NCBI GenBank assembly: GCA_018062135.1
Contig: JAGOSW010000001.1
Location: forward strand, 3,210-67,209
DNA: 64,000 bases
Direction of reading: 5' to 3'
Source: Candidatus Woesebacteria bacterium
GTDB lineage: Bacteria > Patescibacteriota > Microgenomatia > UBA1406 > HO2-37-13b
A model generated the notes under the pieces. It did no database searches, was not told where the DNA came from, and saw only the letters and a list, made by a program, of their open reading frames with translations. Both the position numbers and the translations under genes were made by a program. Each line of letters begins with the position of its first letter. The first letter of the stretch is position 1. This document shows, piece after piece, positions 3,130-50,831 of the stretch.

Positions 3130-4107
3130 ATGACTCAACGCATAGAGATATCCTGGAAAACGATCGTATTCACTGTTGTCTTTCTCATCGGATTGCAAGC
3201 ATTATGGATTGTAAAAGAGCTCATCTTCACTCTCTTTTTAGCATTCATATTCATGAGCGCGCTCAAACCAGTAGTAAACAAACTTACAAAACGTGGTATT
3301 CCCCGTACTGCTGCATCCTTTTTAGTATTGGCTTCTACGGTAGCGTGGCTTATTTTTGTATTAGCCTTTATTCTTCCTCCAATAGTAACGGAGAGTATTT
3401 CGTTTTTGACAAATCTTCCAACTCTATTAATCGAGGCATTCCCGTTTTTTGAAAAAATATTTACAGCAGAATCTGCGATAAGATTCTTCCCGAACATTCC
3501 TCAAAATATATTTAAAATCGCGAGTGGACTATTCTCTAATGTCTTTTTCATAGTATCGCTTATTTTCTTTACTTTCTATTTCTTGCTCGAAGAAATATTC
3601 CTACAGAAGTTTTTGCAAAAAATAATGTCACATCAGGAAGCAAAGAAAGTTACTGAATTTACACAGAAACTTGAGTTGCGTATGGGTGCATGGATGAGAG
3701 GCCAACTCATTTTAATGTTGGTTATAGGATTAACAACGTATATCGGGCTATCAATTTTAGGAATACGTTATGCGCTTTCATTAGCTGTGGTGGCTGGGTT
3801 GCTCGAAGTTATTCCTATTATTGGTCCCGTTGTATCAAGTATTCCGGCGTTTTTAGTAGCTTCAGCGACCTCTACGTTCTCTGGAGGAACAACAATTATC
3901 CTGTATCTTCTTATTCAGCAACTTGAGAACAATATTCTTGTTCCCTATGTAATGAGTAAAACAGCAGGAATTAATCCTATAATGACGCTCATTGCGCTTT
4001 CAGTCGGAGGAAGCCTTGCTGGATTATTGGGGGCGATTCTTGCAGTACCAGTAGCAGTTGTCGTCGAAACAGTTGTATCGGAATATTTCGATAGGCGTAG
4101 TTCATAA
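3130..4107 (+). CDS. AI-2E (PerM/YhhT) family transporter
   Basis: Polytopic membrane protein with the characteristic LLEVIPIIGPVVSSIPA segment. TATAAT lies at 3114-3119, 10 nt before the ATG. Confidence 0.8.
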   Translation: MTQRIEISWKTIVFTVVFLIGLQALWIVKELIFTLFLAFIFMSALKPVVNKLTKRGIPRTAASFLVLASTVAWLIFVLAFILPPIVTESISFLTNLPTLLIEAFPFFEKIFTAESAIRFFPNIPQNIFKIASGLFSNVFFIVSLIFFTFYFLLEEIFLQKFLQKIMSHQEAKKVTEFTQKLELRMGAWMRGQLILMLVIGLTTYIGLSILGIRYALSLAVVAGLLEVIPIIGPVVSSIPAFLVASATSTFSGGTTIILYLLIQQLENNILVPYVMSKTAGINPIMTLIALSVGGSLAGLLGAILAVPVAVVVETVVSEYFDRRSS

Positions 4108-4141
4108 TTTCTTTTTAATTTCTCCACTGTACCATGCTTCT

Positions 4142-5689
4142 ATGGTATCTAAGATTCATACTGCAACTATTGTCGGAATTCAAGTTATTGCCGTTACTGT
4201 TGAAACGGATATTGCCGAGCGTGGCTTCCCCCAATTAAAGATCGTAGGATTGCCTGGGAAGTCTGTTGAGGAGGCAAGAGAGCGAGTGCGCACTGCGCTC
4301 ATTAATGCCGGTTATGAAATTCCTGCGAGGAGAGTAGTCGTTAATCTCGCACCAGCGGATGTGCCAAAGCAGAGTTCTCGATTTGATCTGCCGATAGCTG
4401 TTGGAATTTTAGCAGCTCAAGGACTCATCGATGGTAAAGTGGTAGAGAAGTCGCTTTTTGTTGGCGAGATTTCTTTAAACGGCGAAATTATGCCCGTAAG
4501 CGGCATAATGCCCATTCTCGATTTCGCGCGTCAACGAGGGTTTTCTGATGTATATATTCCGATACAAAATAGCAGTGAAGCATTATTTGCGGGGACCGAA
4601 ATGAATGTGTATGGCGTTCATTATTTAGCAGAAGTAATACTACATTTGCAAAAGAGTCGTCCCATGATCCAGATTGCAATTGAGGAACTTATGTTGAGCG
4701 AGTCCCTAAATGAAAATATCGTAAAAGAAAATGACTTCGTTCATATTAAAGGTCAATATCACGCAAAAAGAGCACTCGAAATCGCTGCCGCCGGCGGCCA
4801 CAACATTATCTTAAGAGGTCCGCCGGGCACTGGAAAAACTATGCTTGCCAAAGCATTTGTATCGATATTGCCACCATTGACCGAAAGCGAAAAAGTTGAT
4901 ATCGCCAAGATCCAATCAATAATGTTCGGTGGTAAAGGCGATAATCTTTCTATATCGCGCGCGTTCCGCGCGCCCCATCATACAATTTCCCGCGCCGGTA
5001 TGATTGGCGGCGGCGCGGATCTTGTCCCTGGCGAAGTAACCCTAGCCCATCGAGGCGTCTTATTCCTTGACGAATTTCCAGAATTCCCTCGCTCGATTAT
5101 AGAAGCACTTCGCCAACCATTAGAAGATGGCACAGTAACAATAACTAGAGTCCATGGCTCCGCGACGTACCCGTCGCGGTTCCAGCTTATTGCCGCAGCA
5201 AATCCCTGTCCTTGCGGCTACTCAGGAAATAAAGAAAAACGCTGTACGTGCATAGGTCGGCAAGTTGCCAACTACAATAGGCGTTTATCTGGTCCTATCC
5301 TCGATCGTATTGATCTTCATATTTCTGTACCAAATATCCCCGAAGAAGATCTATTACGCTCAGATATTGATACAGAACCTACTGAGAAAATTAGAGCACG
5401 TGTTATTGTTGCTAGAAAACTCCAACTTGAACGTTTCTCTTCTCTTCCCGGCATTCGTTATGTAACAAACGCCGAAATGACCACTCAAAACGTGAAAAAA
5501 TTTGTGCAACTTGAACCCAACGCTCGTTCATTCCTCACTAATGCTTTTCAAAAACTTCATTTCTCACCTCGGTCGTATTTTAAAATCCTGAAAGTCGCCC
5601 AAACCATCGCCGACCTTGAAAATAAACACTCAATATCTCAACAAATAATTGCAGAAGCAGTGCAGTATCGGTCCTTTCTCTATAAGTAA
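4142..5689 (+). CDS. comM: YifB/ComM family Mg-chelatase-like ATPase
   Basis: N-terminal Lon-protease-like domain, Walker A GPPGTGKTM, Walker B LFLDEFPEF, and a Cys cluster CPCGYSG..CTC. Start moved from the track's 4058 to ATG 4142 (MVSKIH), which removes the overlap with the preceding gene. Confidence 0.9.
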   Translation: MVSKIHTATIVGIQVIAVTVETDIAERGFPQLKIVGLPGKSVEEARERVRTALINAGYEIPARRVVVNLAPADVPKQSSRFDLPIAVGILAAQGLIDGKVVEKSLFVGEISLNGEIMPVSGIMPILDFARQRGFSDVYIPIQNSSEALFAGTEMNVYGVHYLAEVILHLQKSRPMIQIAIEELMLSESLNENIVKENDFVHIKGQYHAKRALEIAAAGGHNIILRGPPGTGKTMLAKAFVSILPPLTESEKVDIAKIQSIMFGGKGDNLSISRAFRAPHHTISRAGMIGGGADLVPGEVTLAHRGVLFLDEFPEFPRSIIEALRQPLEDGTVTITRVHGSATYPSRFQLIAAANPCPCGYSGNKEKRCTCIGRQVANYNRRLSGPILDRIDLHISVPNIPEEDLLRSDIDTEPTEKIRARVIVARKLQLERFSSLPGIRYVTNAEMTTQNVKKFVQLEPNARSFLTNAFQKLHFSPRSYFKILKVAQTIADLENKHSISQQIIAEAVQYRSFLYK

Positions 5690-6940: not shown

Positions 6941-7052
6941 TGCCTTGGTGATTTGAGCGTCTTGGAACCACCCCTTCCCATTCCGAACAGGGCCGTGAAA
7001 CGAGATAGCGCCGACAATACTTACAACGGGACGATAGGTCATGGCCGAGGCA
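6941..7052 (+). rRNA. rrf: 5S ribosomal RNA (stand-alone, not linked to 16S/23S in this window)
   Basis: Contains CCACCCCTTCCCATTCCGAACAGGGCCGTGAAAC...AGCGCCGA, which matches the conserved 5S core. Helix I closes between TGCCTTGG at the 5' end and CCGAGGCA at the 3' end. A T7 run follows at 7053-7059. Confidence 0.9.
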
Positions 7053-11859: not shown

Positions 11860-12023
11860 GCGGTACGCTGTGTATATGCTTTCGTATCCTTTCAGTTACC
11901 TGAAAGCTTTAAAAGCTTATTTAAGGTCGACAGCTTGGTTTCGACCTGAGGGCACCCGCAGATTATTCGCTAACCCCCTCCTCGTATCCCTTCCATCTTG
12001 CGATGAAGTCGGGCCACACGCTT
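11860..12023 (-). ncRNA. glmS ribozyme (GlcN6P-dependent self-cleaving riboswitch) in the glmS 5' leader
   Basis: The minus strand reads AGCGUGUGGCCCGACUUCAUCGCAAGAUGGAAGGGAUACGAGGAGGGGGUUAGCGAAUAAUCUGCGGGUGCCCUCAGGUCGAAACC.... This matches the conserved glmS core as I recall it (A/GCG cleavage-site context, GGAAGGGAUACGAGG, GGUUAGCGAA, GCGGGUGCC). It lies directly upstream of glmS. The ends are approximate. Confidence 0.85.
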
Positions 12024-12111
12024 TAAAAGTTTATTTCACCCAGACGTATTGTCAGGGAACGATTAATGTCTACCGTAGTTGTATTGTAGGACCAAAGGGG
12101 AAGTAAGTCAA

Positions 12112-27866: not shown

Positions 27867-29264
27867 ATGAAGAAAACATGGATTAGCGAAACACCAGGAC
27901 TTGTTGGAAAAACCGTCGAACTATACGGCTGGGCACAGACCGTAAGAGATCATAAAAAAGTAGTTTTTATCGATTTGCGTGACTCAACAGGATTTGTGCA
28001 GGTTGTAGGAAACGAAGAGCTCTCCAGTATAACTTCAGAATCTGTCATTTATATTAAAGGCCTCGTTAAAGAAAGACCCGCACATATGGCCAACGATAAA
28101 ATTCTGACAGGATCTATTGAAATTGAAGTCCAAGAGCATCGCGTTATCTCTGTCAGTAAGCCACTTCCCATGCCGATCGACGACGACGGTTATAAGATTG
28201 ATGAAGAAATTCGCAATCAATATCGTTATCTCGATCTTCGACGATTGCGCATGGCAGACAACATAAAAATGCGCAATAAAGTTGTCTCATTCATAAGACA
28301 CTTTTTAAGTGAACGACGTTTTACAGAAATAGACACGCCAATATTGACAAAGACTTCTCCAGAAGGAGCGCGAGACTTTATTGTCCCCTCACGATTACAA
28401 CCTGAAAAATTTTATGCACTTCCACAATCACCACAACAATACAAACAATTATTGATGATTGCGGGATTTGAGCGCTACTTTCAAATTGCTCGATGTTTCC
28501 GTGATGAGGACCCACGAAAGGATCGCGCATACGGGGAATTTTCACAGCTAGACATGGAGATGTCTTTCGTTGAACAAAATGATATTTTAGAGCTTGTTGA
28601 AGAGCTTTTTACCAACATGATTAAGGAGCTGTTTCCAGAAAAACATATCACGCAATCACCATGGCCACGCATCTCACATAAAGAAGCAAAGGAAAAATAT
28701 GGAAACGATAAACCTGATTTAAGAAAAGACCCCAATGATCCTCATGAATTAGCATTTGCATGGGTCTTAGATTTCCCACTTTTCACAGAGCAAAGCTCTG
28801 AAGATTTCTATCATGGCTCTGGAAATGCAAAGTATGCACCATCGCACCATATGTTTACCGCACCACATCCAGATGATATTCCACTGCTAGAGACCGATCC
28901 GCTGAAAGTTCGTGGACTACAGCATGACTTGGCTCTAAACGGATTTGAAGTTGGCGGGGGAAGTATCCGCATTCACCAACCAGAAGTTCAAAGCAAGATT
29001 TTTGATTTGATCGGATTTTCTGAAGAACAAAAAGCTCGTTTTTCTGATATGCTCGAGGCCTTTACGTATGGAGTTCCTCCACATGGCGGAATTGCTCCAG
29101 GCATCGATCGTCTTCTTATGGCTTTGCTCGGCGAGCCTTCAGTTAGAGAAGTAATTCCGTTCCCTGCATCTGCAAGTGGAAAAACTGCCGTAATGGATGC
29201 GCCATCAACTGTTGAACAAAGCCAACTTGATGAACTTGGAATCCACATAAAAACAAAAAAGTAA
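27867..29264 (+). CDS. aspS: aspartate--tRNA ligase, bacterial-type sequence but lacking the GAD insertion domain
   Basis: FYALPQSPQQYKQLLMIAGFERYFQIARCFRDEDPRKDR, GGGSIRIH and GIAPGIDRL. Only 465 aa. Confidence 0.93.
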   Translation: MKKTWISETPGLVGKTVELYGWAQTVRDHKKVVFIDLRDSTGFVQVVGNEELSSITSESVIYIKGLVKERPAHMANDKILTGSIEIEVQEHRVISVSKPLPMPIDDDGYKIDEEIRNQYRYLDLRRLRMADNIKMRNKVVSFIRHFLSERRFTEIDTPILTKTSPEGARDFIVPSRLQPEKFYALPQSPQQYKQLLMIAGFERYFQIARCFRDEDPRKDRAYGEFSQLDMEMSFVEQNDILELVEELFTNMIKELFPEKHITQSPWPRISHKEAKEKYGNDKPDLRKDPNDPHELAFAWVLDFPLFTEQSSEDFYHGSGNAKYAPSHHMFTAPHPDDIPLLETDPLKVRGLQHDLALNGFEVGGGSIRIHQPEVQSKIFDLIGFSEEQKARFSDMLEAFTYGVPPHGGIAPGIDRLLMALLGEPSVREVIPFPASASGKTAVMDAPSTVEQSQLDELGIHIKTKK

Positions 29265-29268
29265 ATGC

Positions 29269-30225
29269 ATGCCAAAGAAATCACATAAAAAGACAGCCGT
29301 AACATTTGGGCAACTTCGAATAGTATTTTATCTTTTCTTCATAAGCGGTCTTCTTCTTTTTTATCCAGGAACGGATTATTACACAAATGTTTTTGCTTTT
29401 AATCGGGAGCTATTTACAGAAAATAATAAACTAGACGAAAATTTTACTCCCCAAGATATTCCGTATGTGCGCGACAATAATATTAAACCACTTGTGAGCG
29501 CACAAGGCGTTTATATTATCGATCTTGCAACAGCGACGCCGCTATTCGAAAAAAATAAAGACTCGCAATTTTTTCCGGCGTCGACAGCAAAAATTATTAC
29601 CGCGCTAGCAGCGCGAGATATATACGATCTTGATCAAGTTATAGAAGTTAAGCGCCTTTTTACAGAAGGACAACTTGCAGATTTAGTATTAGGAGAAAAA
29701 CTCACTTTTGAAAATGTCTTATATGCAACACTTATTCACTCAGGAAACGACGCTGCATATGTACTCGCTGATAATAACCCAACTGGTTATGCGGCCTTTG
29801 TTAAGCAGATGAATGCAAAAGCCAAAGAGCTCGGCATGACCCATTCAAGTTTTTCTAATCCTGCCGGCCTTGATGAAGCAGCGCAATTTTCGACCCCTTA
29901 CGATCTATCGCTTGCAGGCCGAAAATTGCTCCAAGACAAGGAGTTATCAAAAATAGTTTCAACAAAAAGCATTACGATTTCTGACGTCGAATTTAAAAAC
30001 TTCCACGCCCTGTATAATGTCAATCAGCTCCTCGGCAAGATTCCTGGCGTAGGCGGATTGAAAACGGGAAAGACGGAACTTGCTGGAGAAAATCTTATTA
30101 CTCTTTATAAGAATGGTGATCGTGCATATCTCATTGTTCTTATGAAAAGTGAAGATCGCTTTAAAGATACGGAAGGAATCGTAACATGGATTCAAACAAA
30201 CATCGCATATGAAGAAAATAATTGA
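29269..30225 (+). CDS. D-alanyl-D-alanine carboxypeptidase (serine peptidase S11)
   Basis: SxxK (PASTAKI), SxN (HSGND) and KTG (LKTGKT) motifs, with an N-terminal anchor. Confidence 0.85.
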   Translation: MPKKSHKKTAVTFGQLRIVFYLFFISGLLLFYPGTDYYTNVFAFNRELFTENNKLDENFTPQDIPYVRDNNIKPLVSAQGVYIIDLATATPLFEKNKDSQFFPASTAKIITALAARDIYDLDQVIEVKRLFTEGQLADLVLGEKLTFENVLYATLIHSGNDAAYVLADNNPTGYAAFVKQMNAKAKELGMTHSSFSNPAGLDEAAQFSTPYDLSLAGRKLLQDKELSKIVSTKSITISDVEFKNFHALYNVNQLLGKIPGVGGLKTGKTELAGENLITLYKNGDRAYLIVLMKSEDRFKDTEGIVTWIQTNIAYEENN

Positions 30226-31907: not shown

Positions 31908-32031
31908 CTTTGCATTCGTCTTAAAACTATCTCATAGTTGTTTTCTAAAGGACTTATGATATAATGTTGATCTAGTTTTTCCACCGGTCCACAGTAGTGG
32001 ACCATCAGCCACCTGAAAGGGGCACCCGACC

Positions 32032-32238
32032 ATGCAGCAGGACGACTTGGATCCGACGACCCGCACCGATGACGAGGACGAGGGCACCGGCACCGGCGCC
32101 GGCGCGAGCGCGGCCGACACCGGTAGCGACCTGGCCACCGATGCCCGCCCGGCCGAGGAGGACACCGTGGTCGACGACCGCGAGATCGGCGGCGAGGGCG
32201 GCGAGGCCCTGAGCGGCATCGAGGGCACCGGCTACTAG
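32032..32238 (+). CDS. small highly acidic protein (68 aa) encoded in a high-GC insert
   Basis: An ATG preceded by GAAAGGGG. Nearly all codons end in G or C (GAC, ACC, GGC, GCC, GAG...), which supports this frame over the three overlapping ORFs in the track. No family recognised. Confidence 0.55.
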   Translation: MQQDDLDPTTRTDDEDEGTGTGAGASAADTGSDLATDARPAEEDTVVDDREIGGEGGEALSGIEGTGY

Positions 32239-32292
32239 GCGCCCGGCGCCAGGTGGAACTATACTGCTCAGCGCAATAGCGCAGAGCAAACT

Positions 32293-32324
32293 AGTCGGGC
32301 GGGGGAACCAACCCCCGCCCGACT
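32293..32324 (+). terminator. GC-rich perfect 13-bp hairpin (AGTCGGGCGGGGG-aaccaa-CCCCCGCCCGACT) at the 3' edge of the high-GC insert
   Basis: Read directly from the sequence. There is no U-tract, as is common for terminators of high-GC bacteria. Confidence 0.5.
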
Positions 32325-32539
32325 GCCATTACTCTTCATTAATCCTCAAATGCTAGAATATAGCTTCCCATACGAGTCGCATGCACTTTCTGTGAGGGCT
32401 TTTTCAAATGCGGGCCGAAGGCCCTCTCTTATCTTTATCTACTGTATTTTAGGTACTTCAAAATCGTATTAAACTGTATTACAAATTTCATACACTGTAT
32501 GACGGTTTTGACTGAACTATAAAGAGTATGCAAAGAGGT

Positions 32540-32869
32540 CTAGTCAATTTCTTCATCAAATTGTCCAGCATCCTTCGTGGTAGCAATCGAATTCGCAATG
32601 AGTTGTGAGAGTAATGTAACATCTTCAAAATGTTTCTTTAACTTATACTGGTTTATTTCAGCTTTGTCTTGAGCAGACATATCTCGTTGTCGCCTTAGAA
32701 CCTTTTCTCTATAAAGATGAAGAAGATATCGAAAAAATTCACTTTTACTTGCAAACTTTTTCTCGTTGACTACTTGCTCTACATACTCATTTAAATACTT
32801 AGGAAGGGAAATACTGACGACTTTACTTCGGCGAGAATTCTTATTTATGATCATACTCATGTATGACAC
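32540..32869 (-). CDS. ribbon-helix-helix (CopG/Arc-like) domain protein
   Basis: VVSISLPKYLNEYVEQVV...FASKSEFFRYLL is an RHH strand-helix-helix pattern. 109 aa. Confidence 0.6.
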   Translation of the reverse strand: MSYMSMIINKNSRRSKVVSISLPKYLNEYVEQVVNEKKFASKSEFFRYLLHLYREKVLRRQRDMSAQDKAEINQYKLKKHFEDVTLLSQLIANSIATTKDAGQFDEEID

Positions 32870-32906
32870 ATACTACCGAACATATATGAAAAATTAATTA
32901 GTCGTT

Positions 32907-37869: not shown

Positions 37870-37940
37870 TGGGGGATCGTTCAATGGCAGGACAACAGCC
37901 TTTGGAGCTGTTTATCGGGGTTCGAATCCCTGTCCCCCAG
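37870..37940 (+). tRNA. tRNA-Gln (anticodon UUG), CCA not encoded
   Basis: Manual cloverleaf. Acceptor UGGGGGA/UCCCCCA. U8. D-loop with GG. Anticodon stem ACAGC/GCUGU with loop CU-UUG-GA. T-arm CGGGG-UUCGAAU-CCCUG. Discriminator G. Confidence 0.85.
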
Positions 37941-38031
37941 CAAAATAGGACTCGAACTGGAGCATGACAAAAAGATAGTGTATGCTAGTTTGTGTAGGCC
38001 TGTGGGAAGAAGTTACGTTCTAAGAAGCCAA

Positions 38032-38526
38032 ATGTTAGGAGATATAAAACCGACACTTTCATTTAATCTATTCTTTAACAGGGATAGACACCAACCAGAA
38101 ATCAAGTTCTATACGGAGCATAATAAAGGAAAGCTATTATACTTTGTCAAGAATATCAGCAAGTACTCAGCATATCAAATACACATTTACTCATATGAGG
38201 ATCACTATCAGGAAGTCGCTCTTCAGTTCATAGCACAGGCTGGAGATGTTCTTGAACCGGGAGAAACAAAAAAAGCAACTTCATATATAGAGTATCCCTT
38301 TGTTGGATGTATGTCGTATAAGGAATATTGGGTTGAGTTTAGTGATGCTGAAGGCAACCATTATAGGTATTCCTCAGGTTCAGACAATAGCGGTATCGAG
38401 CTTGCAAATGTTAAAAAGCTGAAAAAAAGGACAAAACATATAACAACAGGAATAAGGAAGAAGAATAGAATAAAAACCCTTCTATCAAGTTTCATGTATA
38501 AAATTAGATATTTGACAAAAATTTAA
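38032..38526 (+). CDS. hypothetical protein (islet ORF A)
   Basis: The track ORF starts at GTG 37978, and ATG 38032 is more plausible. Basic C-terminal tail. No family recognised. Confidence 0.5.
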   Translation: MLGDIKPTLSFNLFFNRDRHQPEIKFYTEHNKGKLLYFVKNISKYSAYQIHIYSYEDHYQEVALQFIAQAGDVLEPGETKKATSYIEYPFVGCMSYKEYWVEFSDAEGNHYRYSSGSDNSGIELANVKKLKKRTKHITTGIRKKNRIKTLLSSFMYKIRYLTKI

Positions 38527-38536
38527 ATGCTAAAAC

Positions 38537-39331
38537 ATGGGTAAATCAGTGGACAAGGAAGAGATTAATCAAACAAGTAGTACTCAACCTTCCAAAATAT
38601 CAGATGCTCCAATGTATCCAAGAATTAGAAACAGATTCATTGCAAAACTTCTTGATTCTATCGACAAAGATTGGGATGACTTAACAAAAGAATCTTCAAA
38701 AGCTAAAAAGGACAAGGTAGAATTATCTTTCCATAGACTTAAAGAAGCGCTGGTGAAGCTGGACTATCGATTTTTCGAGCTTTATCAGGCGGAAGAGATC
38801 TTTGATCAATTGGATGAATCAGAAATGGGCGAACCATTACATTATTTACAGATTTACTATGTAGACAAAGTTGAAGCATTTCATCAACAAATATATGCAA
38901 CTATCTCAACGCTTATATTGGTGTTAAACCATGTAGGTATTGAGAATGATTTCGTACAGCATCCAATACATAGTGTAAAAAAGTTTTTAGAGTTCATTGG
39001 CGATCATAAGTCATTTAGATACAGAAGCACAATCCAGAATCAAAAAAGCTTGTTAGAAAGTTCAGTTGACTTTAGATCAAAGTTTATTGATCATCCACAA
39101 CAGCACCTGTTACATGATTGGGCAACATTTAGAGCAAATGATGAAGCTTTCTTGATTTTCTTTATAAGAAAGGGAAATGAGGTCTATTTTATCGACCCAA
39201 CAATTCATCCATCTGATGCAGAGTTTAAACCACCAATTAACTGTGGTAAAGATTATTACATTCCACCAAGTCCTCTGGACACTCTGAAGGCATGTCTTTC
39301 ATTAGTTAAACATCTACTTGATATCGAGTGA
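38537..39331 (+). CDS. hypothetical protein (islet ORF B)
   Basis: A 264-aa ORF, helical by composition. No family recognised. Confidence 0.6.
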   Translation: MGKSVDKEEINQTSSTQPSKISDAPMYPRIRNRFIAKLLDSIDKDWDDLTKESSKAKKDKVELSFHRLKEALVKLDYRFFELYQAEEIFDQLDESEMGEPLHYLQIYYVDKVEAFHQQIYATISTLILVLNHVGIENDFVQHPIHSVKKFLEFIGDHKSFRYRSTIQNQKSLLESSVDFRSKFIDHPQQHLLHDWATFRANDEAFLIFFIRKGNEVYFIDPTIHPSDAEFKPPINCGKDYYIPPSPLDTLKACLSLVKHLLDIE

Positions 39332-39342
39332 GTCCTATACAT

Positions 39343-39369
39343 AGGCGTTCGAATCCCTACTCCCCAGCA
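39343..39369 (+). repeat. degenerate direct copy of the 3' end of tRNA-Gln (att-like remnant)
   Basis: AGGCGTTCGAATCCCTACTCCCCAGCA aligns with tRNA positions 37916-37942, CGGGGTTCGAATCCCTGTCCCCCAGCA. By manual alignment 22 of 27 positions are identical. Confidence 0.6.
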
Positions 39370-39477
39370 GAGTTGCTATGAGTATCAAGCATCAAATAGT
39401 AGATGAAATGCTTCTTAGATTATGATATCAATCTATCCTCAGTACCTCAATTCTATCTTTGATATAATCAAGTCGCT

Positions 39478-40281
39478 ATGCACGCATTTAGAACAAGAAT
39501 AACTGATTTGCCTCGCACATATATCCTATACAGAATTAAACACAGATATTACTTACTCTGTTGGTTAGAGCATGGTATTGATGAATCAATGTATATCTGG
39601 TTTGATGACAACATTGACAATTCATGGGAAGTTACCGCTAAACACTCGCAAGATGAAATTGATGGTAAAGTAACAATTGAATTGACACAACAAAAGTATA
39701 AGATTTATGACCCTCATTTGTCTTGGCACCCCTCAGGAAAAGTACATGTAAGTGGTTATAACGAAGCAGGTAGGATGAAGGAAAGACTTATTGCAGATAA
39801 GAAAGCTGCATCATTGCAGGATATTTCTAATGGCCAGACAGTACCATTTTCCCAAATTGTCTTTCCGACAGTAAATTTTCGGAATATGTTTACATTCATG
39901 GGAAAAGGACTTCCTGAAATTATTTCCAAGAATAAGTATTATGTGGTGATAAATAGGAAGGGTCATAAAATCAATAATTCCGGTGCTAAAGACGAAGCCT
40001 ACATCATTATTGATGATGATATTATCCCCAAAGGCAAGAATCTGAGTATCGATTTCTGCATTCATGACAAAAAGGTAGTAGCTGAGCCGATCGGAAATCT
40101 GAATAGGAATTTAATTTTTTCTGAAATTGTTAGTTCACATAAAGACATGACCCAGAATGCATTTGGTTTACGATTATTTTACTCAGATGTTGAATATGAC
40201 TTGAAAAAGGTTAAGGGCTTAATTGCAACTTGTTTTAACCAAGAATCTTATGATCTATTTCAGCTATCAAGAGCTAGATAG
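39478..40281 (+). CDS. hypothetical protein (islet ORF C)
   Basis: A 267-aa ORF. TATAAT lies 9 nt before the ATG. No family recognised. Confidence 0.6.
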   Translation: MHAFRTRITDLPRTYILYRIKHRYYLLCWLEHGIDESMYIWFDDNIDNSWEVTAKHSQDEIDGKVTIELTQQKYKIYDPHLSWHPSGKVHVSGYNEAGRMKERLIADKKAASLQDISNGQTVPFSQIVFPTVNFRNMFTFMGKGLPEIISKNKYYVVINRKGHKINNSGAKDEAYIIIDDDIIPKGKNLSIDFCIHDKKVVAEPIGNLNRNLIFSEIVSSHKDMTQNAFGLRLFYSDVEYDLKKVKGLIATCFNQESYDLFQLSRAR

Positions 40282-40344
40282 TTAAGTATTAGCCTATCAA
40301 CCTCCGAACTTTTCACCTTAGATTTCATCCTGTACAATATTACT

Positions 40345-42033
40345 ATGGAACTATACCTAATGATTTTTGCTGGCGTAATTATTTATGGCGTTCTTAGTAG
40401 CAGAAAATCAAAAGGGATTACTTACACGGATCAATCGGGTGAAAAGAAGACCGAGTCATTGCAGCGTAGAAAGTCTAGAAAATTTCTTACGGTTAATAAA
40501 CCTGAAGGTTTTAACATCACTCCTGAAATAAGGAGCATTTTAGATCTGATGGATAATACCAAGCAGAACGTTTTTCTAACCGGAAAAGCTGGTACTGGAA
40601 AATCAACACTCCTCAGGCACTTTCGTGCTACAACAAACAAGAATCATGCTGTTGTTGCACCAACGGGTATTGCTGCAATTAACGTTCAAGGACAAACCAT
40701 TCATTCATTCTTCGGATTCAGAATTGGGGTCACACTGGGTTCGGTACGACCTGTGAGTTATGAAAAGTTAAAGGTAATACGGAATCTTGAAACCTTGATT
40801 ATAGATGAAATATCTATGGTAAGAGCAGATTTATTAGATTGTATTGATAAGGCTTTACGGATAAACCGCCGTAACACATTGCCATTCGGAGGAGTACAAG
40901 TTATTGCAATAGGTGATCCTTATCAACTCCCCCCTGTTGTAACAGCATCGGAAGAAAAATTTATTCAAAGGACTTACGGTGCTCCACATTTTTTTAACGC
41001 GATGAGCTATAAAACTAGTAACTTTACTACACGAGAGCTGACGAAAGTTTATCGTCAGAGCGATGGTGTCTTTATTGATATTCTTAATGCAATTAGAACT
41101 GGGGATCACAGTGAGAGTCATATTAACCAATTAAACAGCTTGACTAGATCTAATCGGCCAACTGATTCATCAATAAAACTGGTTACTACTAATAATATGG
41201 CACAGATGATAAATCAGTCACAACTAGATTTGATACAATCAGAAGCCGCACACTACAGTGCTCAGGTATCAGGCAACTTTTCTGAAAAAGCTGCCCCAAC
41301 AGCAATTGACTTGTATCTTAAGGAAGGGGCACGAGTAATGCTACTAAATAATGATAGGGAAGGTCGTTGGGTGAATGGTGATGTCGGTTTAATTATAGGA
41401 CTGAGTAAGTCATCGGTCAAAGTAAAGTTTGAAGACGGAACATATGAAGATGTTGAACCTAATATTTGGGAAAATATTCAATTTGAGTTTGACGAAGAGA
41501 CTCAAAAAATTGAGCCAGTTATAGTAGGAAAATTCGTTCAACTTCCGGTTAAGCTTGCCTGGGCAGTTACGATACATAAATCACAAGGTAAAACATACGA
41601 ATATGTTCATATTGATTTTGGTTCGGGAACCTTCGCTCCTGGTCAAGCTTATGTTGCATTAAGTAGAGTAACTTCTCTTAACGGCCTTTCATTTGAAACT
41701 CCCATATTACCTAATGATGTGCTAATAGATAAAGCTGTGAAAATCTTCATGGTGCCCGAACTCATTAAAAAGAAGGTTACTAGTTTAGTAGATAAGGAGG
41801 ATGTAGATATAGCAAGAGAGCAAAAGCAAGACGATATAGCAAAATCAGATATCAACAAACTCAAGTTTTTTATCCAAAATGCAGAAAGATATGCGACCGG
41901 CACAAAAAAATCTAAGGAAAAGGTCGAGCATTCGATCAAGGTCTTTAATGCGATGAAAAACAATCTTTCAGATGATGAAATCAAAGATTTTGAATCTGCA
42001 CTTAAGCGTTACAAAGGAAAATTACTAAGTTAA
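40345..42033 (+). CDS. Pif1/RecD-like SF1B DNA helicase with N-terminal hydrophobic segment and C-terminal charged extension
   Basis: Walker A GKAGTGKST, Walker B IIDEISMV, GDPYQLPPV and TIHKSQGKTYEYV. The N-terminus LYLMIFAGVIIYGVLSS is TM-like. Confidence 0.85.
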   Translation: MELYLMIFAGVIIYGVLSSRKSKGITYTDQSGEKKTESLQRRKSRKFLTVNKPEGFNITPEIRSILDLMDNTKQNVFLTGKAGTGKSTLLRHFRATTNKNHAVVAPTGIAAINVQGQTIHSFFGFRIGVTLGSVRPVSYEKLKVIRNLETLIIDEISMVRADLLDCIDKALRINRRNTLPFGGVQVIAIGDPYQLPPVVTASEEKFIQRTYGAPHFFNAMSYKTSNFTTRELTKVYRQSDGVFIDILNAIRTGDHSESHINQLNSLTRSNRPTDSSIKLVTTNNMAQMINQSQLDLIQSEAAHYSAQVSGNFSEKAAPTAIDLYLKEGARVMLLNNDREGRWVNGDVGLIIGLSKSSVKVKFEDGTYEDVEPNIWENIQFEFDEETQKIEPVIVGKFVQLPVKLAWAVTIHKSQGKTYEYVHIDFGSGTFAPGQAYVALSRVTSLNGLSFETPILPNDVLIDKAVKIFMVPELIKKKVTSLVDKEDVDIAREQKQDDIAKSDINKLKFFIQNAERYATGTKKSKEKVEHSIKVFNAMKNNLSDDEIKDFESALKRYKGKLLS

Positions 42034-42069
42034 ACTGTAATAAATAATTCTGATATTATCAGCTAAAGC

Positions 42070-43299
42070 ATGACTAAAAAATTTAACCAGTGGTTGTTAC
42101 CTTTATTTTTTGTTCTCCTATTTATCCTCATCAGATCAATATACTTCGACAATCTCTTCAACTTCGTCTACGACCAAGTATCCTCATCAACAGAAATCTT
42201 AAAATTATGGAGGACTAAATCAATCTCCCTCCTTGGTCCGCCAATGTCGTTTACCGTTGAACATCGCCAAGTTTTCTTTGGAGGATTCTCGTATCTCATG
42301 CAATTCGTGTTTCTCGCCATCGGCAGCTTTGACCCCTTCCTTTCGACATACGCGTTTATGGTATTTAGTGCACTCATGATCTTTCCACTGTACTTTGGAA
42401 CCAAAAGACTCATAAATCAAACAGCAGCTATAATCATGGCAACGCTCTATACACTACTTCCATATTTCATCGAAAGTACCTCTTCAATGTGGAATCCATA
42501 TTTTATGTTTAGTCTTTTTCCTCTGATTGTCTATCTCATGGGATTATTCAAAACGAAAAAATCACCATGGCTTTTCCTATTTCTTTCCATTCTCGGAGGC
42601 ATATGTTTTCAACTTCATTACTTATTCATATTTGCGTGGGTCGGCATCGGCGTGTATTATTTCTTTGTCGAAAAACTTTCTCGAAAATTTCTAGCAATTT
42701 TCATTCTCGGATTTGCTATCGGTATAGCGAATCTTATGCTTTTTGAAGTTCGCAATAATTTTTATCTTTTACAAACACTCTGGATTTATGTGACGCACCC
42801 GAGAAATGTTTCACAGCATTGGATTGCTCCTTACTACATTTTGAGCGAAGTATTTTTCGCTATTCTTGCTGGACTTTCGATCTTTAGAAAAAGATTAAAC
42901 AATACGATGGTCGTGGCACTTTTTATTGTTCTTTTGCTCATGAGCATTCCATACATAACCACTGATGCTAGAGAGAGGAGTTATCCAAAAGATTGGTACT
43001 ACGAAGACGATATTGAGGTTTACAAAATTATTAAAGACAATCTTCCTACTTATCAGGATGTAAACATTTTTGAATTTTATGATGCAACCGGAAACGTTCC
43101 TAAGTATTTTCTAAAACTAGATAATGTTTTATTAGACTACGATGACTACTATGGAAACAAGTATCTGTATGTTTCCTATAAAGATGATCAATTTATGAAA
43201 AATGCAGCGTATGAAGTCGCAAGCTTTAATCCATCAAGAATCGTCAAAACCTGGAAAATAAATGATGTGTACAATCTCTTTTTGTTAGAAAGACTGTAA
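42070..43299 (+). CDS. polytopic membrane protein, possibly GT-C/ArnT-like glycosyltransferase
   Basis: About 9 TM helices plus a C-terminal soluble domain. The family assignment is tentative. Confidence 0.55.
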   Translation: MTKKFNQWLLPLFFVLLFILIRSIYFDNLFNFVYDQVSSSTEILKLWRTKSISLLGPPMSFTVEHRQVFFGGFSYLMQFVFLAIGSFDPFLSTYAFMVFSALMIFPLYFGTKRLINQTAAIIMATLYTLLPYFIESTSSMWNPYFMFSLFPLIVYLMGLFKTKKSPWLFLFLSILGGICFQLHYLFIFAWVGIGVYYFFVEKLSRKFLAIFILGFAIGIANLMLFEVRNNFYLLQTLWIYVTHPRNVSQHWIAPYYILSEVFFAILAGLSIFRKRLNNTMVVALFIVLLLMSIPYITTDARERSYPKDWYYEDDIEVYKIIKDNLPTYQDVNIFEFYDATGNVPKYFLKLDNVLLDYDDYYGNKYLYVSYKDDQFMKNAAYEVASFNPSRIVKTWKINDVYNLFLLERL

Positions 43300-49701: not shown

Positions 49702-49718
49702 AGAAACGGCAATTGATT
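49702..49718. repeat. left arm of perfect 17-bp inverted repeat AGAAACGGCAATTGATT
   Basis: The exact reverse complement occurs at 50832-50848. Together the arms bracket the high-GC cassette. Confidence 0.85.
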
Positions 49719-49934
49719 TTCTGTGTTCCTAACATCAACTTCGGCAGCCAGCCGCTGGTCGTGGCCACAAGTGGCCCCGGGCCGTCGTAGACGGCATTGG
49801 TCGGTATGTTTCCGACCAGCGGCTGGACTGCCTGGGGGTTAGTACCCCGTGAAGGTGATTACCGGCTCACGCCGGCAGCGCCGCAGAGCGGCGCTCAAGG
49901 ATGCCCTCAAAGGGCGTCTAAGTGTATGAGGTTG

Positions 49935-50585
49935 TTAGAGCTGCAGCTGCTGGCGGGTCGCCGGCTGCCACATCATCGCGATCTCGTAGCCCAGCAGGTA
50001 CTGCCGCAGTGCGCGCAGACGGTGGTGGCCGGTGGCCGCCATCGCTGCTCCGCCCATGTTGGCATCGTCACGCCACGCGAGGTGGCCGTCGGTCCACGTC
50101 TCGTTGGTGGCCGCCATGTACTGGCAGCCGGGTGGATTGAAGGTCGTCGCAACGCCGTAGGCCAGGTGCCGGCTGCCGGTATTCGTGCTGTAGTTGGCGA
50201 TCAGTTGCTGCCGCTCATCGTTGCGCCAGACCGTCGTCGCCCAGTTGTGGCCGTTGAAGCCCTTCGCGCTCGCGATGCCGATGCCGGTGTACCCCGCGCT
50301 GGCCATCTGCTGCGCCGTCGTCTGCCCGTTGTCCATGGCGATGGCCTGTTGCGTCTGGCCGTCGTGGCCGTAGCTGCGCAGCAGAACCATCTGGTTCGGG
50401 TTGAGGTTGGAGTCGGTGTTGAGCGCGATCAGCTGGTCAGCAGCACTGCCGACGTTGTTGATCGTCGCCACGTTGTGGTCACCAGAGACAGCGTTCGCCG
50501 CCGCCAGGTTGGCCGGGCGGCTGAACGCACCAAGGAACATGATCGCGATCGCGATCGGAACGGTCCATCGGAGGAAGCGTTGCAA
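49935..50585 (-). CDS. secreted protein of unknown function, encoded in high-GC (Actinobacteria-like) codon usage
   Basis: TTG start at 50585 with GAGGGA 7 nt upstream. Nearly all codons end in G or C. Signal peptide MQRFLRWTVPIAIAIMFLGAFSRPANLAAANA. Chosen over the plus-strand ORFs in the same DNA. Confidence 0.7.
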   Translation of the reverse strand: MQRFLRWTVPIAIAIMFLGAFSRPANLAAANAVSGDHNVATINNVGSAADQLIALNTDSNLNPNQMVLLRSYGHDGQTQQAIAMDNGQTTAQQMASAGYTGIGIASAKGFNGHNWATTVWRNDERQQLIANYSTNTGSRHLAYGVATTFNPPGCQYMAATNETWTDGHLAWRDDANMGGAAMAATGHHRLRALRQYLLGYEIAMMWQPATRQQLQL

Positions 50586-50831
50586 GAGGTATCCCTCACT
50601 TTGTCTTCGCGTAGATGGGTTGGTCTCTCCGTCAGGTGACGGGAGGTGGGGAACTGCGGACGATGCGACTAGGCGATCAGGGCGGTCCCCGGATCATGTA
50701 CTTCTGCCTCCTTTCATGGTGGCAAGCTTGGATGGATAGACACTGACGCCCAAGGTAGCTGGTCAGTAGAGCTCTAAAGACATTTTTATAATATCCCTAA
50801 AATTCTACTAACCAACTTTCAAATTTCTAAT

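Follow-up and report, generated by a model that had tools for sequence, protein, structure and literature searches.

How a short, sharply bounded tract of GC-rich DNA comes to lie in an AT-rich genome, and why it stays GC-rich there, is the question raised by a locus in Candidatus Woesebacteria, a member of the Microgenomates within the Candidate Phyla Radiation (CPR). We analyzed a 64-kb stretch of this genome (contig JAGOSW010000001.1, positions 3,210 to 67,209), hereafter called the window. In it, between an ABC-2 permease gene and a ribbon-helix-helix (RHH) gene, lies an island of high G+C (GC) content with an open reading frame (ORF) for a small, highly acidic protein. A first interpretation made from the letters alone (the sequence-only reading) had presented the island as an insert. 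We favor a different answer, to which we give a probability of roughly 0.6, namely that this is a genuine, vertically inherited orphan gene restricted to one clade, with a disordered polyanionic product, GC-rich codons that are actively maintained and a decoy mode of action, the last element being far more tentative when taken by itself.

The Island Coincides with a Predicted Transcript

The GC content is 0.67 at positions 31969-32342 and 0.71 at 31981-32326, with a peak of 0.78 in 150-nt windows, as compared to 0.404 for the window. The sequence-only reading was thus right to describe a sharply bounded GC-rich segment. Across the 64 kb, only one other island exceeds 300 bp in length (49718-50740). 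Just upstream, in AT-rich DNA, a plus-strand promoter can be recognized (31938-31965), consisting of a TTGTTT -35 box (31938-31943), a 16-nt spacer and a TATAAT -10 box (31960-31965). A TG dinucleotide at 31957-31958 makes this an extended -10 element, and the TATAAT-like box that had been noticed in native-looking DNA is therefore a conserved extended -10, since it is also found in the relatives described below. The promoter is absent from the listing of a consensus scan because its -35 box matches the consensus at only three of six positions.

Transcription is predicted to start at about 31971-31975. The left edge of the GC-rich part falls approximately 10-15 nt past this point, and its right edge is a terminator-like hairpin, so that the boundaries of the island are the ends of a transcript, not an insertion scar. 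Around the island we found no flanking direct repeats or terminal inverted repeats of the transposition type, as the sequence-only reading had already reported, and at the island there are no mobility genes, integration scars or nearby tRNA, the neighbors being housekeeping genes only.

The Island Recurs in Independent Assemblies but Has No Detectable Donor

The 68-residue peptide encoded in the island is present, exactly or as variants with 97% or 81% identity, on contigs of at least eight independent assemblies, which span Logan, ENA, JGI and NCBI and come from different samples and assemblers. The ORF is in every case directly downstream of the ABC-2 permease gene and is followed, wherever the contig reaches that far, by an RHH-type gene. 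Aligning these loci revealed junctions that match base for base, and at the strain level each version of the island varies together with its flanks. An assembly chimera, or contaminating high-GC reads joined to a CPR contig, would account for the abrupt change in composition and for nothing else. Since identical junctions occur in at least eight assemblies, which also answers the doubt about their read support raised by the sequence-only reading, the island is no chimera, the residual chance of one being negligible. Divergence between strains is mosaic along the locus, and the low divergence of the island is no outlier within it; this low value is therefore uninformative on selection. A co-occurring strain (L003) is 95-100% identical to the window over most of 20 kb and essentially cannot be aligned across most of aspS (28032-29300) or to the right of approximately 38 kb (38000-42238), a pattern that indicates mosaic replacement through recombination.

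Using the peptide and a family profile as queries, we found no donor and no larger parent gene in a word index of 5.8 billion proteins. When 1.84 billion representatives were scanned in full with HMMER, nothing outside the locus was returned except two hits that were discarded as low-complexity or repeat proteins. The only relatives in these protein searches, P0001-P0004, are all encoded at the same locus. No homologue was detected in 185,579 GTDB species genomes, in phages and plasmids (by tblastn) or in IMG/VR viral contigs. Likewise, the peptide has no match in sequence searches of Pfam, NCBIfam, PHROGs, PADLOC and the PDB, and Rfam contains no family at gathering score, with noise only up to E = 10. 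In none of the databases searched is the segment part of a longer gene, and the failure to assign the peptide to Pup, to precursors of ribosomally synthesized and post-translationally modified peptides (RiPPs) or to any other known family was borne out by Pfam and NCBIfam. In the literature, we found no description of this gene or of its compositional phenomenon.

Orthologous Islands in Two Diverged Lineages

Two GTDB species representatives that were retrieved with the neighboring permease carry the same locus. These are L009 (CAZTOA010000028.1) and L010 (CAZTFB010000002.1), whose flanking DNA is respectively 83% and 75% identical to that of the window. Both records are titled “uncultured Gammaproteobacteria,” which looks wrong given this identity and the synteny with the Woesebacteria window. 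At exactly the site seen in the window, and after the same AT-rich promoter block (TAGTTGTTTT.TAAAGGA....TG.TA.AAT), both have a GC island of 68-70%. The orthologous ORF of L009 (6930-7172) encodes 80 aa, that of L010 (6865-7110) encodes 81 aa, and both end with TAG. The L010-type island was found in two further assemblies. A metagenome scan with the permease revealed no further members of the clade.

A Shine-Dalgarno (SD) sequence, GAAAGGGG at 32015-32022, lies 9 nt before the ATG of the window ORF within a small hairpin (32008-32023, plus strand). It is within a local hairpin in L009 (AAGGAGG) and L010 (AAAGGAG) as well, and the distance from SD to ATG is 8-10 nt in all three lineages. The 5' untranslated region (UTR) of the window also contains the 7-bp hairpin GGUCCAC-AGUA-GUGGACC (31986-32003, plus strand), at the position of which L009 has a different hairpin (UGCCCC...GGGGCA). 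Next to the -35 box, and abutting it, we also observed a palindrome, AACTAT-CTC-ATAGTT (31925-31939), that the window shares with L009 and of which L010 keeps half. A dimeric DNA-binding protein, the neighboring RHH protein for instance, may use this palindrome as its operator.

The Acidic ORF Bears the Signatures of a Protein-Coding Gene

The ORF at 32032-32238 (plus strand) comprises 68 codons and a TAG stop (MBP9815646.1, KBD09_00200), and the peptide given in the sequence-only reading is its exact translation. GC content at first, second and third codon positions (GC1, GC2 and GC3) is 0.74, 0.54 and 0.94, confirming that nearly all codons end in G or C. In contrast, GC3 averages 0.327 in 62 host ORFs that are 100 aa or longer. 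The acidic ORF is approximately 15 standard deviations away from this mean, and none of the 62 exceeds 0.43 except one inside the other GC-rich cassette of the window. Written in host codon usage, the same peptide would have an expected GC3 of 0.34; the binomial probability of at least 65 G or C among its 69 third positions is 4e-26.

Several features argue that the ORF is coding. A three-base periodicity with GC3 > GC1 > GC2 occurs in the same frame in all three lineages, with GC3 values of 0.94 in the window, 0.975 in L009 and 0.951 in L010, so the frame is conserved in homologous loci, a point on which the sequence-only reading had made its own case depend. Between strains, an 18-nt deletion inside the ORF (variant P0002) is in frame, and a 2-nt GG indel falls in the loop of the 5' hairpin, that is, in the UTR. 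Tandem repeats in the L009 ORF have periods of 33, 45, 27, 9 and 6 nt, all multiples of three, and small in-frame repeats are also found in the window ORF. A 98-aa antisense ORF in the window, which shares the GC3 phase, was considered and rejected, since it enters the AT-rich flank, has an odd order of GC1 and GC2 and lacks a counterpart in L009, where there is no antisense ORF of 30 aa or more. Because of the same-frame periodicity, the SD, ATG and TAG signals, the in-frame indels, the triplet repeat periods and the lack of an antisense ORF in L009, we consider the acidic ORF to be very probably protein coding.

The predicted product contains 20 Asp and Glu residues, three Arg, no Lys and no Cys, and is therefore the acidic, Cys-free protein that had been described. 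Net charge in the three lineages ranges from -14 to -28. AlphaFold2, run with a small and shallow family alignment, gave a mean confidence (pLDDT) of 60 and a pTM of 0.11, and its model shows a single 3-residue helical turn, with no strand and no helix of four residues or more. Within the limits of that shallow alignment, the result is consistent with the disorder suspected in the sequence-only reading, and the protein is predicted to be intrinsically disordered. Residue identity among the three lineage proteins is only 20-40%. The sole position-specific conservation consists of the start, M-x-Q, and of a C-terminal Gly-x-Tyr/Phe, which reads GTGY (Gly-Thr-Gly-Tyr) in the window and GGAY and HGGF in the other lineages. 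Judging from these sequences, the protein appears to evolve fast, partly through in-frame tandem duplication, with its composition kept.

GC-Rich Codons Have Persisted Through Saturating Divergence

If the high GC were the imprint of a recent arrival, it should decay toward the host composition with time. Four-fold degenerate sites of the neighboring permease gene differ at 54-65% of positions, corresponding to Jukes-Cantor distances of 0.94 (window versus L009) and 1.49 (window versus L010), which are saturated. The third positions of the acidic ORFs have turned over as well, being 58-65% identical in a codon alignment as compared to the 50-51% expected from composition, and despite this turnover they are 94-97.5% G or C in all three lineages. 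A simple two-state relaxation model, generously started at a GC3 of 1.0, predicts no more than 0.53-0.63 today, and the observed values have binomial probabilities of 1e-9 to 1e-17. Since GC3 is undecayed despite saturated divergence, the high GC is not the residue of a recent arrival. The choice of codons is shared too: across the three lineages, GGC accounts for 35 of 38 Gly codons and GGG is never used, GAG accounts for 30 of 31 Glu codons and GAC for 30 of 35 Asp codons, and ACC, GCC, AGC and CGC are the preferred codons for their respective amino acids.

These findings bear directly on the possibility of recent or recurrent transfer from high-GC donors, in which unameliorated DNA would have been acquired, or refreshed, in each lineage at a hotspot. 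In composition and codon choice, the island does resemble a high-GC genome, its site is variable, being occupied by other accessory genes in one relative and empty in another (see below), and the same genome contains a second GC-rich orphan cassette. As in ORFan islets attributed to horizontal gene transfer, we see a short orphan with deviant GC and codon usage and its own expression signals, in a slot that varies between relatives. Unlike such islets, however, this one has no detectable donor in the proteins, GTDB genomes, phages, plasmids and IMG/VR contigs searched, has no mobility scars or genes, is orthologous across saturated lineages and shows no drift of GC3 toward the host. Moreover, the three lineages share the promoter, a left edge that closely follows the transcription start and 3' hairpins that are homologous, three independent insertions at one nucleotide-level position are improbable, and the island is not missing from close relatives, the only ones without it being the more distant L067 and L068. 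We therefore regard such transfer as quite unlikely. The term “insert” is not supported, given the finding of the island at an orthologous site in three lineages with saturated silent sites in the flanks and undecayed GC3.

What maintains the GC richness would then be either selection, on the mRNA or its codons, or a local GC-biased process. Candidate causes are selection for a very stable message, effects at the level of codons, gene conversion biased toward GC and turnover in which GC-rich units are duplicated in frame. It is conceivable, if unlikely, that the composition of G/C-ending codons is itself the selected trait, the island having been made and held by selection and not by transfer. 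In that case, the RNA might be exceptionally stable and have two functions, or the message might be tuned to a setting of translation or RNA decay unlike that of the other genes of the host, for example through rare-codon gating or use in or by a high-GC partner organism. Alternatively, the gene could be real and its GC richness a neutral by-product of a hotspot of GC-biased conversion or of slippage and duplication of GC-rich triplets. The in-frame tandem repeats, the mosaic strain divergence that indicates frequent recombination and the location in a variable slot all fit such a process. Yet the bias is codon specific, as seen in the shunning of GGG, and strongest at third positions, the GC tract ends at the transcript ends without grading into the flanks and repeats cover only part of the ORFs, and we consider this explanation improbable.

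GC-rich orphan or de novo ORFs for disordered proteins have been treated in work on yeasts and their local GC background (Basile et al. 2017, PMC5389847). The acidic ORF resembles these in being a GC-rich orphan with a product predicted to be disordered and differs in that its GC exceeds that of the genome around it by approximately 35 points and stays at that level.

Predicted Structure of the Transcript and Its 3' Hairpins

The stop codon is followed by three GC-rich hairpins, all on the plus strand. The first (H1; GGCGC-CCG-GCGCC, 32238-32250) has a 5-bp stem, overlaps the final base of the stop codon and is equivalent to GGCGCC-AAC-GGCGCU in L009. The second (H2; UGCUC-A-GCGC-AAUA-GCGC-A-GAGCA, 32265-32288) is imperfect; at its place L010 has GCUCCGGC-ACCC-GCCGGAGC, a different sequence that forms the same hairpin and is followed by the same AAAC linker. 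The third (H3, 32292-32325) is terminator-like, with a 13-14-bp GC stem that is perfect over 13 bp (32293-32305/32312-32324). The hairpins reported by the sequence-only reading at 31986-32003, 32265-32288 and 32293-32324 are thus all present, H1 being an addition. All three lineages have three GC hairpins at the 3' end, the last of which is a long G/C stem. In H3, compensatory changes between lineages convert U-A to C-G and G-C to A-U, and altogether the pairing of H2 and H3 is kept through changes that include three pairs with double changes, in three lineages whose ORF bodies cannot be aligned.

UUCCACC (31979-31985), directly after the predicted transcription start, is complementary to GGUGGAA (32252-32258), located 14 nt past the stop codon, and in the minimum-energy fold the entire ORF is closed by this pair. 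A shifted version of the pair is found in L009 (GUUUUCCA / UGGAAAAC), and in L010 a CUUUUCC motif pairs with the SD region instead of closing the ORF. The predicted fold of 31974-32340 is far more stable than those of shuffled sequences (z = -5.7), and so is that of the 3' region alone (z = -4.4 to -7.2).

Could the island then be a structured noncoding RNA gene, its ORF a mere accident of the scarcity of stop codons in GC-rich sequence? In AT-rich genomes, a GC-rich island is typically an RNA gene, and GC-rich structured RNA genes are the basis of screens for noncoding RNAs by GC content and intergenic regions. Our island shares with them its delimitation by a promoter and a terminator-like hairpin, the stability of its predicted fold and 3' hairpins with putative compensatory changes, and within the island of the window none of the six frames is much interrupted. 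It departs from them in its strong same-frame codon periodicity in three lineages, the conserved SD, ATG and TAG stop and the restriction of length changes inside the ORF to in-frame ones; moreover, the transcript body is unconserved in sequence and in alignable structure even though protein composition is conserved, and no Rfam family matches even at E = 10. An RNA gene with an accidental ORF is in our view decidedly improbable. An additional role at the RNA level, which would make this a dual-function transcript, may exist.

We also considered a leader-peptide attenuator, as the Asp/Glu-rich ORF with three hairpins lies between aspS and gltX, and rejected it since there is no downstream gene on the same strand and antiterminator-type pairing is not conserved: the window ORF contains 8 nt complementary to the 5' arm of H3, and both L009 and L010 lack such a match.

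Beyond the island, the segment between it and the RHH gene (32345-32435) has features of its own. It contains a second TGnTAnAAT box (32352-32360), a 33-nt block, TTCCCAT[A/T]CGAGTCGCATGCACTTTCTGTGAGG, that differs by one base between the window and L009, and a hairpin, GGGCC-GAA-GGCCC (32412-32424), whose tail is T-rich. In combination, the three could represent a small RNA or the 3' UTR and terminator of the RHH gene.

A Variable Slot Shared with an RHH Gene

In the window, the slot extends from 31908 to 32906, between the ABC-2 permease gene and a conserved gene for a membrane protein of 363-385 aa. Two more distant relatives show what else it can hold. In L067, whose permease protein is 70% identical, the membrane-protein gene begins 3 nt after the permease gene (2461-2463), with neither island nor RHH gene, while L068 (67% identical) has a pair of DUF2442 and DUF4160 genes at the site (3790-4290), without acidic ORF or RHH gene. 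The slot is thus variable, being empty in L067, occupied by other genes in L068 and filled by the acidic ORF together with the RHH gene in the clade of the window, which includes the L010 lineage with a permease that is 85% identical.

The RHH gene (32540-32869, minus strand), of the CopG/ParD/NikR-like type and with weak RHH matches, is convergent with the acidic ORF. It is present in the window, L009 and L010, where it is of a shorter form, and absent in L067 and L068. To judge from this distribution, both the acidic gene and the RHH gene would already have been in place at the base of the small clade, and a functional link between the acidic protein and the RHH protein can be envisaged. The 385-aa gene after the RHH gene is also on the strand opposite to the acidic ORF. 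As for the ABC-2 transporter pair, it is conserved in relatives that lack the acidic ORF, so its adjacency is uninformative, and a role of the acidic protein as substrate of the adjacent exporter was rejected on the same ground.

A Possible Acidic Decoy

What might such a protein do? Acidic tails ending in an aromatic residue are known from the tip of bacterial SSB (...DDDIPF) and from phage T7 gp2.5 and gp4, and acidic inhibitors that mimic DNA include Ocr, Ugi, ArdA and p56. The acidic protein resembles these in being a polyanionic chain with a free C-terminal aromatic residue after small residues, and its dense negative charge and terminal Tyr/Phe, conserved in three lineages, are features expected of an acidic decoy. 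It differs in being free-standing, without an oligonucleotide-binding (OB) fold or a mimic scaffold, and it has no sequence similarity to any of them. By this analogy, the protein might be a nucleic acid-like decoy or shield for a basic DNA- or RNA-binding partner, with the aromatic C terminus as its anchor, a proposal in which our confidence is low. The adjacent RHH protein would be a possible partner or regulator.

Other known systems were also considered. Like Pup and UBact, the protein is small (approximately 60-80 aa), acidic and disordered, with a Gly-containing C terminus, which invites the idea of a modifier matured by trimming after Gly-Gly. However, it has no match to Pup or any other hidden Markov model (Pfam, NCBIfam), its C terminus is aromatic and not Gln or Glu, and the 10 kb on either side contain no gene for a PafA/Dop-type ligase or a proteasome, making such a modifier very unlikely. 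We rejected a RiPP or bacteriocin precursor, as there are no nearby modifying enzymes or C39-type exporter, no Cys and no NCBIfam precursor match, and also a target of a diversity-generating retroelement, as the 64-kb window contains no second or template-repeat copy and no reverse-transcriptase domain is found among the neighbors.

The Other GC-Rich Cassette and Further Features of the Window

The second cassette (49718-50772) contains an ORF on the minus strand (49935-50585; 216 aa, MBP9815665.1) with a GC3 of 0.88. This is an orphan too, its only relatives (59-83% identical) being located on short contigs and orphans themselves, and it stays GC-rich in diverged copies. Unlike the acidic gene, this cassette is flanked by inverted repeats (GAAACGGCAATTGATT / AATCAATTGCCGTTTC). 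In six ENA assemblies (loci L146-L154) it occurs as stand-alone contigs of 1.05-1.1 kb with 32-131x coverage, which end at the borders of the cassette, the ends examined in L149 and L150 running straight into Illumina adapter sequence. Such contigs point to a molecule whose ends are defined or to an element found in multiple contexts, that is, a mobile one. The sequence-only reading had taken the composition of the two islands to suggest the same donor or the same mechanism and had named Actinobacteria as the group to search. Since neither has a detectable donor, the claim of a common donor is unsupported; what they have in common is the maintenance of a GC-rich orphan gene against an AT-rich genomic background.

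The window further contains a glmS ribozyme (11864-12033, minus strand), a lone 5S rRNA gene (6944-7050, plus strand), which has no 16S or 23S counterpart anywhere in these 64 kb, and a tRNA-Gln gene (37870-37941, plus strand).

Discussion

Taken together, the evidence favors a vertically inherited gene that works as follows. An extended -10 promoter in AT-rich DNA would drive a transcript of approximately 350 nt, which begins with a 5' hairpin and an SD sequence that is partly enclosed in a hairpin of its own, continues with the ORF (68-81 codons) and closes with three GC hairpins, the final one being terminator-like. Its G/C-ending codons would be maintained against the AT-biased mutation pressure of the host. 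The gene probably entered the variable slot with, or near, the RHH gene at the base of the clade.

Several points weigh against this reading. With only three diverged lineages, the statistics of covariation and conservation are thin, and the co-occurrence with the RHH gene is based on the same three, the two genes being convergent and not co-transcribed. Translation of the acidic ORF is deduced from signatures in the sequence. The amelioration estimate depends on a simple two-state model and saturated distances, and selection, biased gene conversion and repeat turnover are all possible causes of the maintenance of GC. The conserved C-terminal motif (G-x-Y/F) is short. Lastly, H3 is not followed by a run of U, and its role as a terminator is assumed.

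Deviant GC is routinely taken as a sign of recent transfer or misassembly, especially in CPR metagenome-assembled genomes, and at this locus composition alone would mislead, as the deviation has outlasted saturating divergence and follows the ends of a transcript. With approximately 70-80 silent sites per lineage kept some 60 points off equilibrium, the gene is a small natural test case for the power of selection or of biased conversion to keep them there. The small proteome of Woesebacteria, which is very poorly characterized, also gains a polyanionic disordered protein that is clade-specific and probably abundant.

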